Positions 26,888-31,595 of a stretch of DNA of 64,000 bases are shown here, in pieces (position 1 is the first letter of the stretch; each line of letters starts with the position of its first letter). The notes beneath the pieces were generated by a model. That model ran no database searches and had not been told where the DNA came from. It saw only the letters and a program-made list of their open reading frames with translations. The translations under genes were made by a program, and so were the position numbers. The DNA is from a virus (taxonomy: Duplodnaviria > Caudoviricetes). The stretch lies in IMG/VR virus record IMGVR_UViG_3300030376_006203, positions 1-64,000 of that record; one strand, written 5' to 3'.

Positions 26888-27436
26888 TTATTTGTTCCAT
26901 CTTGACTTTACTCCAAAATGTTTATAAGCCTTCTGCACACTTTTGGCTTGAAAATAACAATCAGCCAATGCGTTGTGTAGTGACATCTGTATGTCTTTTC
27001 TTGGATCTTTTGGTAACATATTGAATAGAGTTCGTGAATCTCTAATTTGCCAATAGTTCCAAGGTACTGGTTGTCCCATTTGGGCATACAAATTCTGTAG
27101 AATGGCGTAATCAAAAAGAGGTCCTTGACACCAAAGTTCATCTAGACCTACACACCATTTGTTAAGTTGTTTTACCATTTCATTCAAAGGCACTCTATCC
27201 TCATCTCCGAGTGCTTCATCTCTAATTTTTTCATCTTGTTTACCCCACCATTCTAAAGTGCCATCGTCTATATGACGACCAAGTTCACTCTGTTCATCTA
27301 CATTAACTCTAAGGTATAATCCAGTATGTGGTTCTTCATTTGAATATGGATCAAATTTTATAGCACCTAAAGTCAATACAGTGGCATCGGGTCTTGTGCT
27401 TAATGTTTCCAAGTCTATCATTCCATGTACAGCCAT
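26888..27436 (-). CDS. DEDDh 3'-5' exonuclease (DexA/Rv2179c-like)
   Basis: IDLETL, FD..IL, RDSRT, HNALAD. Confidence 0.85.
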   Translation of the reverse strand: MAVHGMIDLETLSTRPDATVLTLGAIKFDPYSNEEPHTGLYLRVNVDEQSELGRHIDDGTLEWWGKQDEKIRDEALGDEDRVPLNEMVKQLNKWCVGLDELWCQGPLFDYAILQNLYAQMGQPVPWNYWQIRDSRTLFNMLPKDPRKDIQMSLHNALADCYFQAKSVQKAYKHFGVKSRWNK

Positions 27437-30106
27437 CTATCCTCCAAAATCAAATAAGTTGTTGAATGTGTTATTACTTTCAGTTGACTTAATATCCCAA
27501 CCTAAAACACCTAACAAGTTGCCAAGTTTATTATCAATCACAGTGCTTTCCATAGTAGCATCATCAAATGGCAATTCTTTAAACCATTGTGGCAATCTTA
27601 ATTCATCTGTTGGATATGCCACACTTGTATATTCTAATGGATTCTTTTTAAGTTTACACACAATCACTTTCATGCCATCCATAATTTCTTGTGAGTACTT
27701 GTCACTGTTCATACGTTTTAGTGTGTTCCAATTGATACTTGCTCTCACGTGTCCAGGCATATTTGCTTTGCCTTGACGTGCTTCTTTTTTAGCATATTCG
27801 CCAATGTTGTTTGCTCTACGTGGAGAACCTTTCTCCCAGCCTGGTCTAGTTTTAAATTCATTTCTAAATTGTGTAATTTTATCCAGCACTTGTTCTTCTG
27901 TGTTGCCGGTCAATACCATAAGTAATAATTCAGATAAAAAGTCTTGAATGTATACTGGAGTATCTGATCGCTTCAGGTCAAGACCCATTGCTTTAATTTT
28001 TCCTGGTTTGTCATCTATATCCTGTCTATAACCTTCCAAGTCATATATCAATATGGCATAACGTTTTTTTGTAATAAACAAGCCTGATGTTGCCACACTT
28101 TCTCTACCTGCTTGAATTACTTCTGCTCTTGATTTCATACAATGAAATGCTTGTCCCATAAATTTTTTAAATGAATTGTTTACTTCACCTGCCACTTGAT
28201 CATACAATTTAACAACACTTTCTTTAGTCCAAGGAATTTTTCCTTCGTCTATTTCTTTTTTAAGAACTTCATATGCTGAAAAATATGCGGAATCTGTATC
28301 ACCATATATTATTGCTTTCCCAACATGGTTGTATTCACCTGTGATCACTTCATTAATTTTAGCCGCCATGTGTTTACTAATCTGTCTACCGGATAGTGTA
28401 GTTGATTGTCCAATACGTTTGTCAAAGAATCTACATCCTGGATTCAGAATAGCACCATACAAACTGTTCAAGTTAATCTTTTTAACAAGTTGTCTTTTAT
28501 CCCAAAATTCTATTTCAGCATCATTGTTGGCTTCTTTGGCTTTCTTTAACATTGCCTGCATTTCTTTTCTTTCTTTGTACCAACGAGCAAGTAGTCCTGG
28601 TATTACACCCTCAAATTCGCTTGTAAATATTGTTCCGTTGGCACTTATCATCATTGGATTATTACTTTCAAATATCATCTTGTAAATTTCAGCACCACTC
28701 ATCACATCTGTTTTACCATCTTCCCAGTCTACATTAATACTGATATCTTTTCTTTTTTCCATTACAGCATCATATTCTAATGATCCGAAATGATTTTCCC
28801 AAGCACCTGCGAATGATTTTTTCTGTAAAGTCATTTGTTCTTCGATATATTCATCTGTGTACGTTGGTCTTAATTGTCCCATTACACATTCAGGAGCCAT
28901 GTTCAAGGCTCTAATCACAGAAGGATATAGTGAATTAATATCCATTGATCCTATCCAACTATGTAATCCTTTTCTTGGATATGCCACATAAGCACCTGCG
29001 GCTGTGGTTGAAGTTTCATCTCTCTTTGGTCTATTAGGAACTTGTACTCCTCGCCTATGTGCTTCATTTATAATTGCTTGTTCTGTTACTGCGACTGCAC
29101 CTAGTGTTGTTTGAAGTAGTACAGTGTTTGCGTGTGCCAATTCATTTGATAATGCTATGAATCTTAATTTACGATCCAGTTTGTCTAACAATGCCACGTC
29201 TTGTCTATTGTATTCAACAAAAGTTCTAAAATCTTGATTATATAATTGATCTAAACTGCCTTCATATATGGTTTTCTTTTCACCGATTTCATGTTCACCA
29301 ATAGCATCTAATCTGTAACTGTGTCGTTCTTCATATGTGTATTTTCTATAAAGTTCTAATGAATCTAAATGCACTCTACCAACTAGATCATAAGTTTCTT
29401 GTTCACGACCAAATCTTTCAAATGTTCTTTTCTTCGGCATTTGTTTCCATAAGCACAGACGTCTTGTGTCATCTTTGCTCATTACTTTTTTAATTCTGTT
29501 AATGATGTATGGTAAGTCATAACCTTCTGAATTCCAACCTGATATAACATCAGCATCTTCAATAATATCTAAAAATGCTTTAAGCATATCTGCTTCATCT
29601 TTATACAAGTATAGATTGTCTATGCCTTTGGTTATTTCTTTTGCCTCCTCAATTCCCATTGTCTTAGGTGGCATAGCGAAAGTAACCATAGTGTCTAGCC
29701 ATTGTAACGAAACTGTGATTGCTGTGATAGGCATAAATGGATCACTAGGTTGGCTGAATCCTTTTTCAGGATCAAAGTCTGCTTCAATATCAAAGAAAGC
29801 AATGTTTAAATCCGGAGCATCTTTGTTTAAATAGTTTTCACTTAAACATTGAAAGATAGGATTTACGTCTGATTCGAATAATGTTTTGTTTCTATTGATT
29901 GCTAATTCTTTATGAAAATCTTTTGTATTTTTACAAACAATTCTGCTTAAAGGCTTTCCAGTTGTGCTTTTAAATTTGCCGCCTGGATCTTCATGATAAA
30001 ATGTATATTTGATTGGATATTCTTTGAACACTCTTTCTTTGTTTTGTCTTTCAACAACTCTTATGATATCTGAACTTCTATCAAAGTATCCATCTATGTA
30101 ACTCAT
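27437..30106 (-). CDS. polB: family B DNA polymerase (gp43-like)
   Basis: Exo DIE, GWNSEGYD, YNRQD; pol DINSLYPS, KINLNSLYG, YGDTDS, KKRY. Confidence 0.97.
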   Translation of the reverse strand: MSYIDGYFDRSSDIIRVVERQNKERVFKEYPIKYTFYHEDPGGKFKSTTGKPLSRIVCKNTKDFHKELAINRNKTLFESDVNPIFQCLSENYLNKDAPDLNIAFFDIEADFDPEKGFSQPSDPFMPITAITVSLQWLDTMVTFAMPPKTMGIEEAKEITKGIDNLYLYKDEADMLKAFLDIIEDADVISGWNSEGYDLPYIINRIKKVMSKDDTRRLCLWKQMPKKRTFERFGREQETYDLVGRVHLDSLELYRKYTYEERHSYRLDAIGEHEIGEKKTIYEGSLDQLYNQDFRTFVEYNRQDVALLDKLDRKLRFIALSNELAHANTVLLQTTLGAVAVTEQAIINEAHRRGVQVPNRPKRDETSTTAAGAYVAYPRKGLHSWIGSMDINSLYPSVIRALNMAPECVMGQLRPTYTDEYIEEQMTLQKKSFAGAWENHFGSLEYDAVMEKRKDISINVDWEDGKTDVMSGAEIYKMIFESNNPMMISANGTIFTSEFEGVIPGLLARWYKERKEMQAMLKKAKEANNDAEIEFWDKRQLVKKINLNSLYGAILNPGCRFFDKRIGQSTTLSGRQISKHMAAKINEVITGEYNHVGKAIIYGDTDSAYFSAYEVLKKEIDEGKIPWTKESVVKLYDQVAGEVNNSFKKFMGQAFHCMKSRAEVIQAGRESVATSGLFITKKRYAILIYDLEGYRQDIDDKPGKIKAMGLDLKRSDTPVYIQDFLSELLLMVLTGNTEEQVLDKITQFRNEFKTRPGWEKGSPRRANNIGEYAKKEARQGKANMPGHVRASINWNTLKRMNSDKYSQEIMDGMKVIVCKLKKNPLEYTSVAYPTDELRLPQWFKELPFDDATMESTVIDNKLGNLLGVLGWDIKSTESNNTFNNLFDFGG

Positions 30107-30116
30107 ATATTCTCCT

Positions 30117-30165
30117 TTTTGTCATTTGTGGCTGACAAAATACCAAAAATCAATTGTGGCTGATT
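30117..30165 (-). promoter_or_regulatory. tandem RNA hairpins with near-identical 8-nt loops abutting polB SD (putative translational operator)
   Basis: mRNA AAUCA-GCCACAAU-UGAUU and UUUUGUCA-GCCACAAA-UGACAAAA followed directly by AGGAG. Confidence 0.65.
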
Positions 30166-30170
30166 AAACC

Positions 30171-30410
30171 TTACTTTATATAATATAATAGTATACCTCC
30201 GAAACCCATTAAAGTCAACACCGTATTAGTGACAATGAGTGCCGGTTCTTTCCAAAGAAACGATACTATTAACCAAATTACTCCTCCCATTGCCAAAAGC
30301 AATGGACCTATAGGATATAATTCAGGAAAGCCTGCGTTTACAAAAGTGCCTATAATTAGAACTGACGTTGCGAGCCATTTTAATGTGTTGCCTGTTTTTA
30401 CTTGTTCCAT
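30171..30410 (-). CDS. small 3-TM membrane protein
   Basis: three hydrophobic segments, LKW..T, YPIG, W. Confidence 0.65.
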   Translation of the reverse strand: MEQVKTGNTLKWLATSVLIIGTFVNAGFPELYPIGPLLLAMGGVIWLIVSFLWKEPALIVTNTVLTLMGFGGILLYYIK

Positions 30411-30556
30411 ACTAATAATGTTTTGCCTATTACTTTTGATTTACACCCTTTGAACTTGTGTATATTATTTAGAAAAAATTCTTCAAGTGCAGAAAAACTT
30501 GGAAAGGTATATTTGTGCATCACACCTGCTCTTGAATTAAACTTAACGTGATTCAT
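30398..30556 (-). CDS. 52 aa hypothetical protein (not in ORF track)
   Basis: fills gap between guaC and membrane gene, overlapping both; [21 protein letters not shown]... Confidence 0.5.
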   Translation of the reverse strand: MNHVKFNSRAGVMHKYTFPSFSALEEFFLNNIHKFKGCKSKVIGKTLLVWNK

Positions 30557-31595
30557 ACTTGTCGAAAACTCTATTGATTACATTATTCACTCTTACAAAG
30601 TGAGCCGCTTTAGGCATATCTTTAATTCGTCTTGCCCCAATATAAGTGCAGGTGCTTCTTACTCCACCTAATATCTGTTCAACAGTATCTTTAACAGGTC
30701 CTTTATCATCTAGTGTAACTGTTTTGCCTTCCACGCCTCTGTATCCGTCTTTTCTTTGTCCATGTGTGTTTAATGCTGTTTGCGAAGCCATACCATAAAA
30801 TATTCTTTTGCCGTCTTGTAATTCTAATTCTGATTCATCATGTCCTGCTAACATTCCTCCTAGCATTACAAAATGTGCACCGCCACCTAATGCTTTAGCA
30901 ACGTCACCTGGTTGTGTACAACCTCCATCAGCAATTATATGTCCACCAACACCATTAGCGGCATCTGAACATTCCATTATTGCTGTGAACTGAGGCACAC
31001 CTACACCTGTTTGCGTTCTTGTGGTACACACACTACCTGGACCAATTCCAACTTTTACAATATCAGCACCTTTAATAATTAATTCTTCTGTCATGTTTGG
31101 AGTTACAACATTACCAGCAATTATCACTTTGTCTGGATATTCATCTCTAATTTTAGTAACAAAGTCTACAAATGATTCATGATAAGCATTCGCAACATCT
31201 ATTGTTATACAAGGTATATCAGGAAATGCTGACATCACTTGTTTTAATGTTTGATAATCTGTAGCGTCTTTGTTGAATATTGCTCCTGTGCCTACACAGG
31301 CAGAAACATATTTAAATTTTAATCCTGTGCCTGCCGCCTGTTTCCAATCATCTAGTGTATAATGCTTTCTAATTACTGTAAGCATTTTGTATTCTTGTAG
31401 CACTCTTGCCATTGAAAAAGTTCCAACACCATCCATATTAGATGCCACAATAGGAACATAAGTCAGTTCTTTACCACTGTTTCTAAATTTAAATTTTCTT
31501 AATATGTCTACGTCTCGTCTAGAACTTAATGTTGATCTTTTAGGTTGTAGCAATACGTCTGAATAATCTAAATGTATGTTATAATCAATTCTCAT
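30543..31595 (-). CDS. guaC: GMP reductase
   Basis: [50 protein letters not shown]. Confidence 0.93.

Follow-up and report, generated by a model that had tools for sequence, protein, structure and literature searches.

Twin Mini-Pseudoknots in the Leader of the DNA Polymerase Gene of Uncultured Jumbo Phages: Structure, Distribution and Possible Role as a Translational Operator

Introduction

Autogenous control of a replicative DNA polymerase at the level of its own mRNA is known experimentally only from the T4-type coliphages, where it is exerted via a plain hairpin. [quoted passage not shown] The window analysed here, a 64-kb stretch of DNA belonging to an IMG/VR record of 148 kb, for which a completeness of 41% is estimated, contains a gene for a polymerase of the same gp43 type, and the short leader of this gene contains two hairpins with near-identical loops. 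The question raised by this locus is whether the two hairpins form a regulatory structure, at which level, DNA or RNA, such a structure would operate, and which factor, if any, would recognize it. As detailed below, the element represents a different RNA architecture located at the same regulatory position as the T4 operator, and it occurs in hundreds of uncultured aquatic jumbo phages.

The polB Locus and Its Transcript

The polB gene (window positions 27437..30106, minus strand) encodes an 889-aa family-B DNA polymerase of the T4 gp43 type, with Pfam matches to DNA_pol_B (2.3e-32) and to the exonuclease domain (1.3e-24), and shares 26% identity over 700 residues with T4 gp43 itself (E 4e-54). 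The closest cultured relatives of this PolB belong to jumbo phages (Phosso, Vibrio 2.275.O, and the 121Q and Rak2-like groups), with an identity of at most 50%. Upstream of polB, an ORF of 79 aa with a weak DUF6552 match (30171..30410, minus strand) terminates with a TAA stop codon (30173-30171) immediately 5' of the element, which occupies the whole intergenic gap of 64 nt (30170-30107, minus strand) comprised between this stop and the polB start. The Shine-Dalgarno sequence and the start codon (30104..30116, minus strand) consist of AGGAG at 30116-30112, a 5-nt spacer, and the polB AUG at 30106-30104. Depending on the lineage, the gene located upstream of the element changes; the element itself stays with polB. 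The neighbourhood of polB on the minus strand also contains a gene of the IMPDH/GMP-reductase family, two ORFs upstream (window 30543-31595), and a gene for an Rv2179c-like 3'-5' exoribonuclease directly downstream (window 26888-27436).

A sigma-70-like promoter is predicted on the minus strand at 30190..30218, with a -35 box TTGACT (30218-30213) and a -10 box TATACT (30195-30190) separated by a 17-nt spacer. It shows 10 of the 12 possible consensus matches in a consensus scan, sits inside the 3' end of the upstream ORF and ends 19 nt before the first GG of the element, the predicted transcription start being located about 11-13 nt before the first structured unit. Marine relatives possess TTGACA-17-TATAAT or TATACT at the same distance, which matches the consensus perfectly or nearly so, and in other lineages a TGnTATAAT motif occurs 5-9 nt before the GG. 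Judging from these consensus matches, the two structured units described below would constitute the very 5' terminus of an early polB transcript. An intrinsic terminator of the upstream gene was also considered for the same region and discarded, no terminator-like site being found and the stems being A/U-rich without any consistent U-run.

The Mini-Pseudoknot Scaffold

Read on the minus strand, the leader corresponds to GGU-UU-AAUCA[GCCACAAU]UGAUU-UUU-GGU-A-UUUUGUCA[GCCACAAA]UGACAAAA-AGGAG-AAUAU-AUG. A previous sequence-only reading of the window had located two hairpins with near-identical 8-nt loops within these 64 nt, and re-reading the minus strand confirms both hairpins at the same coordinates, with the loops GCCACAAU in the first (unit A) and GCCACAAA in the second (unit B). 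The position of the second hairpin at the AGGAG Shine-Dalgarno sequence is equally correct, unit B ending 1 nt before it; among relatives, the Shine-Dalgarno sequence begins 0-4 nt past the 3' strand of unit B. The two stems had been described as different, which is accurate for their lengths, 5 bp in A and 8 bp in B, but they have in common the three loop-closing pairs UCA/UGA.

On the evidence of covariation in both helices of both units, each unit is an H-type pseudoknot of ~25 nt (about 24-26 nt). Pseudoknot A (30148..30170, minus strand) consists successively of the 5' strand of the helix S1, GGU (30170-30168), the loop L1, UU (30167-30166), the 5' strand of the hairpin stem S2, AAUCA (30165-30161), the 3' strand of S1, GCC (30160-30158), the loop L3, ACAAU (30157-30153), and the 3' strand of S2, UGAUU (30152-30148). 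A UUU linker (30145..30147, minus strand), the length of which varies from 2 to 6 nt among relatives, joins it to pseudoknot B (30117..30144, minus strand). The latter is similarly composed of the 5' strand of S1, GGU (30144-30142), a single-nucleotide L1, A (30141), the 5' strand of S2, UUUUGUCA (30140-30133), the 3' strand of S1, GCC (30132-30130), L3, ACAAA (30129-30125), and the 3' strand of S2, UGACAAAA (30124-30117). The core of the unit B stem kept in relatives is UGUCA, and L1 becomes AUUU if only the 5 conserved pairs form.

As deduced from the aligned leaders, the general unit is 5'-GGY, 1-4 nt, a stem strand of 4-8 nt, GCC, NNAAR and the complementary stem strand, in which GGY pairs with GCC. 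The resulting S1 helix of 3 bp is marginal by itself. The GCC triplet directly abuts the 5' strand of the hairpin stem, which allows coaxial stacking of the two helices. The A-rich 5-nt remainder of the loop would cross the 3-bp S1 helix, and its conserved AA bases may play an A-minor role.

Conservation and Covariation of the Stems

Folded as a single sequence, the leader yields a minimum-free-energy structure that lacks hairpin 1, and a z-score of -0.05 versus shuffled sequences. The structural evidence comes from a comparison with some 200 related contigs of IMG/VR. When this database was searched with PolB, 80 loci were retrieved, with 99-70% identity, and both hairpins are kept in almost all of them with differing stems, e.g., UGUCA/UGACA, UGUGA/UCACA, UGCGA/UCGCA, UGCAA/UUGCA and UGUCU/AGACA, among others. 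The loop consensus in the PolB-retrieved loci is GCCAYAAN for the first hairpin and GCCNNAAR for the second.

Both hairpins are independently predicted by RNAalifold on a MAFFT alignment, in which 90.4% of the cells assigned to pairs are effectively paired, versus 15-41% in slid controls, and compensatory changes occur at 8 of the 10 pairs. A further 87 distinct leaders are 93% paired. Covariation affects all five stem pairs of unit A, and the stem of unit B is paired to 98.6-100%, again with compensatory changes. Some of these alignments were fitted to the model, or contain sequences that were pattern-retrieved with parts of unit B fixed; the PolB-retrieved counts are free of both biases. Across clades, only the AA of the loop is kept as sequence beyond the GCC helix strand.

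The covariation analysis in related phages which the sequence-only reading had put forward as a check thus shows that both stems covary and that the element is conserved in relatives. The accompanying proposal, that selection acts on the structure as well as on the loop sequence, stands for the structure, and has to be modified for the loop: its GCC is a helix strand which pairs with the upstream GGY and covaries with it.

Evidence for the Pseudoknot Pairing

An invariant GG(U/C) triplet occurs 1-4 nt 5' of each stem, and is complementary to the GCC that opens the loop. Considered overall, the covariation states of S1 comprise GGY/GCC, AGY/GCU, AGU/ACU, GUC/GAC and GGA/UCC. In unit A, the rare variants are compensated, e.g., AGU associated with GCU in L118 and L167, and GGA associated with UCC in the L017 lineage, with a single uncompensated exception, a terminal U-U in L192. 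A one-sided test consisted in scanning IMG/VR for unit-B loops starting with GCU and not GCC, the upstream bases being left free. All 15 polB-linked matches to such loops exhibit AGU or AGC upstream, as compared with 0 of the 5 chance matches. These 15 polB-linked matches correspond to a sister clade, the PolB of which is about 60-64% identical.

An RNA-unbiased set of 104 distinct leaders, retrieved by the PolB protein alone, gives the same picture. For unit B, a compatible triplet occurs in 72 of the 72 real hairpins and none is discordant, the observed states being GGU/GCC (38 leaders), GGC/GCC (1), AGU/GCU (27), AGC/GCU (4) and AGU/ACU (2). Since a permutation across states does not discriminate, with 49% of the permuted pairs compatible when G.U is allowed and several offsets are tried, the strict association between position X1 of the triplet and the loop base was relied on instead: a G at X1 goes with a loop C in 39/39 leaders, and an A at X1 goes with a loop U in 33/33. 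For unit A, the same set contains GGY/GCC in 29 parsed leaders and in four additional leaders with a bulged stem which were read by eye, together with GUC/GAC (19), AGU/ACU (6), GGA/UCC (1) and a few degenerate cases; AGU/GCU in this unit comes from the pattern-retrieved leaders. The pairing state of unit A has changed at least 9 times on the PolB tree, and the two AGU/GCU lineages are not sisters. The commonest third pair of S1 is U.G; as this pair would correspond to A.C on the opposite strand, the fold is assigned to the sense RNA of polB.

An alternative pseudoknot, in which the Shine-Dalgarno sequence pairs with the CC of the loop, was rejected; it needs a zero-length L1, and shows no covariation with the loop changes of the sister clade.

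Copy Number and Distribution

The exact 14-mer TCAGCCACAAWTGA occurs only at the two sites of the leader in the 148-kb genome. A covariance model built for the two hairpins gives a single match in the same genome, with 83.8 bits, the next one reaching 17.6. With the same model, each of 100 loci yields exactly one match, as does each of the 18 pattern loci that remained; five large relatives, among which are the complete genomes of 400 kb and 372 kb, likewise contain one match each. When single units (GGY, stem, GCCNNAAN, stem) were searched for, the own genome and the complete genome of 400 kb each yielded the two polB units and nothing else, 0.3 and 0.8 matches, respectively, being expected from shuffles. 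A genome-wide repeat or a regulon was consequently rejected, the 14-mer, the covariance model and the single-unit search all matching the polB leader only, in the 148-kb genome and in the complete relative of 400 kb.

Another hairpin with a GCCACAAU loop, AGAUU[GCCACAAU]GGUUU, with G.U pairs, was noticed inside the 3' part of the polB coding region (window 27581-27598, minus strand); devoid of any upstream GGY, it is probably due to chance. Outside the window, the record contains a tmRNA with the tag peptide ADAELVAA (record 103170-103542, minus strand; ARAGORN), and a look-alike hairpin at record position 103188 was discarded, since it is a tmRNA arm read on the reverse strand. Six tRNA genes (Thr, Gly, Cys, Glu, Asp and Gln; ARAGORN) are clustered near the contig end, at record 145800-148000.

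A pattern scan for the second hairpin detected at least 120 further contigs. Among the 78 matches read in detail, 72 lie directly before polB, 2 before a polB cut by the contig end, and the remaining 4 before a Cys-rich ORF of 57-66 aa which overlaps the polB start. With respect to the cultured phages, the element is absent from the polB leaders of Phosso, Vibrio phage 2.275.O, 121Q and XbC2, the PolB of which are 44-50% identical, and two of these four leaders possess plain terminator hairpins; the T4 gene 43 leader is also devoid of it.

Within the uncultured phages, the lineages without any element (L047 and L048/L056/L063) and those which possess only the unit proximal to the Shine-Dalgarno sequence (L042 and L044) form one clade. 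This clade is nested inside the element-bearing phages, which indicates that the losses are secondary and that the Shine-Dalgarno-proximal unit is the one which disappears last. In the polB leader of this clade (L042:768-853, L047:2921-3006 and L056:2921-3006), repeated (A)AUAGCA(R) words were observed instead, which may represent a replacement signal. In the sister clade, about one third of the leaders lack the element.

The linker of the sister clade is itself conserved, as CAUGUAGAGU (e.g., L284, L295 and L304), ~30-40 nt before the polB start, and the AGU it contains corresponds to the unit-B triplet. The spacer GGUAUUUG was also envisaged as a promoter or as a triple-helix strand; conserved in the main clade only and variable in the sister clade, it is not essential.

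Comparison with Known Regulatory RNAs

The operator of T4 gene 43 is a single hairpin of 16-18 nt with a ~5-bp stem, an 8-nt loop and a -UAAC-/-UAAA- core, of which the 3' AC/AA matter for binding, and there is no evidence of a pseudoknot in it (PMC3014915). Both this operator and the element occur in the leader of a gp43-type polymerase gene, after the promoter and before or overlapping the RBS, and both combine a ~5-bp stem with an 8-nt loop and a single target per genome. As read here, the T4 gene 43 leader comprises a -10 box followed by the hairpin with a 5-bp stem and an 8-nt loop, and then the Shine-Dalgarno sequence, i.e., the same order as in the element. A loose A(U/C)AA likeness can also be recognized among the loops of T4, AAUAACUC, of RB49, -UAAA-, and of the element, GCCAYAAN. 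Unlike the gene 43 operator, however, the element consists of two units, its loops are GCCAYAAN and GCCNNAAR as opposed to AAUAACUC, and half of each loop is engaged in a helix. No complementary triplet occurs 1-5 nt upstream of the stem in the T4 leader, whereas the element possesses a covarying one, and the hairpin is separated from the Shine-Dalgarno sequence by ~9 nt in T4, whereas the element abuts it. By its position and presumed logic, the element is thus comparable to the operator of T4 gene 43, without being a member of the same family, and homology between the two is not shown.

A second point of comparison is offered by gene 32 of T4, T2 and RB69, another gene of the T4-type replication module, the leader of which similarly carries at its 5' end a compact H-type pseudoknot with coaxial stems. 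The gene 32 pseudoknot serves the autogenous translational control by gp32 (PMC3014915); it is located ~67 nt upstream of the AUG, and nucleates the cooperative binding of gp32 along an unstructured A+U-rich tract extending to the RBS. The polB element differs from it in having two pseudoknots set against the Shine-Dalgarno sequence (0-4 nt), no A+U tract, and polB instead of ssb as the regulated gene.

The tandem arrangement of near-identical units before a Shine-Dalgarno sequence also recalls the guanidine-II (mini-ykkC) and tandem preQ1-I riboswitches, in which two small structured units similarly follow each other directly upstream of the Shine-Dalgarno sequence. Contrary to these riboswitches, the element conserves no ligand-pocket sequence, its partner triplet lies upstream of the hairpin, and its Shine-Dalgarno sequence is uninvolved in the fold; in addition, the ACGR loops of guanidine-II are self-complementary whereas the loops of the element are not. 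Among the families of Rfam 15, which comprise the pseudoknot riboswitches preQ1-I/II/III, SAM-II/V and guanidine-II/III, none reaches its gathering threshold on the leader, the best being preQ1-II with 19.4 bits versus 47 (E 0.97), a score driven by the AAAGGAG..AUG tail. A full-text search of the published literature found no description of the element.

Possible Function and Alternative Readings

That the element plays a cis-regulatory role at the level of translation is quite probable, in view of its structure and location. The more complete statement, according to which it is a translational operator for polB with PolB as the most likely factor, has in our opinion about an even chance of being correct. 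The binding of a factor to the compact fold beside the Shine-Dalgarno sequence would block the access of the 30S subunit and thereby limit the synthesis of the polymerase, and the likeliest factor would be free PolB, by autogenous repression as in the case of gp43 from T4, RB69 and RB49. No conserved pairing involves the Shine-Dalgarno sequence, so that repression needs either a bound factor or steric hindrance. With exactly one target in a genome of 400 kb, the regulator is better accounted for by autogenous control than by a general repressor, and the near-absence of sequence conservation beyond the loop AA fits a shape-reading protein better than a small-molecule pocket.

The identification of PolB itself as the ligand, which relies on the analogy with T4 and on the one-target distribution, remains tentative, and slightly below an even chance. 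Some T4-related gp43 proteins do not autoregulate (PMC3014915). When the PolB residues are compared with the loss of the element, K712R and E853A alone differ in both loss lineages, and these changes are conservative and not above background. The tandem operator proposed from the first reading of the sequence accordingly stands as a real, tandem, structure-selected element that abuts the Shine-Dalgarno sequence and is specific to the gp43-type polymerase gene, with the reservation that its loops are not simply a sequence recognized by a protein.

Other readings of the element have to be weighed against this one. A signal operating at the level of DNA (for example a palindrome recognized by a protein, a promoter, a terminator or an origin) would dispense with any RNA structure, the stems being DNA inverted repeats and the spacer GGTATTTG being conserved in the main clade. 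The way the positions covary and the asymmetry between the strands leave practically no room for it: the half-sites covary, whereas the asymmetric centre does not change, the G.U and U.G pairs, including the U.G of the pseudoknot, work on the sense strand only, and the G to A change in GGT goes exactly with the C to U change in the loop, which no promoter model predicts. Moreover, nothing terminator-like occurs at the site, and the sister clade does not keep the spacer. At the RNA level, most positions covary freely and shape alone is kept, which would suit a module acting without any ligand, either as a 5' shield of the early polB transcript against 5'-end-dependent decay, or by fixing a low or optimal rate of initiation through crowding of the Shine-Dalgarno sequence; the promoter-like site, which puts the transcript start just upstream and the pseudoknots at the extreme 5' end, points in the same direction. 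However, a plain hairpin would do for 5' protection, and yet the tertiary pairing and the loop AA are maintained in two units down to about 60% PolB identity. The element is found on no other early gene in the complete relatives, and some lineages have lost it secondarily without any similar replacement, all of which makes this explanation unlikely.

It is likewise rather unlikely that the twin pseudoknots serve as an operator for a trans-acting protein other than PolB, whether an RNA-binding regulator of the phage or a protein of the host (S1, for instance, or a different ribosomal protein). A conserved compact fold located at the Shine-Dalgarno sequence would suit any protein repressor or activator, and no residue signature in PolB follows the loss of the element. 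General phage repressors such as RegA have many targets, though, as opposed to exactly one per genome for the element, and the upstream neighbour varies with the lineage, leaving no conserved adjacent regulator gene. A search for the RegA family gave no match in the own genome, of which 41% is available, nor in the control genomes. A tandem riboswitch, in which each mini-pseudoknot would bind a small molecule (a metabolite of the nucleotide pool or a metal ion) and the ligand-stabilised fold would tune the translation of polB, agrees with the one-gene distribution expected of a cis sensor, and riboswitches commonly fold as H-type pseudoknots with an A-rich loop. It is nevertheless quite improbable: the leader has no Rfam match, the units are only about 24-26 nt long, nearly all positions covary or vary so that no conserved pocket remains beyond the AA, and there is neither a conserved alternative pairing acting as expression platform nor any sequestration of the Shine-Dalgarno sequence. 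Such a riboswitch would represent a new class of very small tandem aptamers, sensing a small molecule or ion linked to DNA synthesis and coupling the output of the polymerase to the supply of precursors without a protein repressor, a view to which we attach the same low probability.

If PolB does bind to the twin pseudoknots, self-limitation of the polymerase would appear as a solution which recurs, either by re-invention or by heavy remodelling, and the element would offer a compact model for the recognition of an RNA shape by a family-B polymerase. Failing such binding, the element is to be regarded as an orphan among cis-regulatory RNAs. Either way, it qualifies as a clear candidate for inclusion in Rfam as a new family, and is small enough for NMR or crystallography.

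The Cys-rich ORF (CxxC...CxxxCxC) comprised between the leader and polB in L111 (4643-4816, minus strand), L104, L112 and L128 was also envisaged as a candidate regulator and set aside, since it matches no family in Pfam or PHROG and was not detected in the own genome. A similar Cys-rich ORF was observed in the sister-clade loci L280-L282, L289, L290, L298 and L302, and in both clades it is preceded by the element. Its overlap with the polB start in L104, L111, L112 and L128 suggests that this ORF is probably translationally coupled to and co-regulated with polB.
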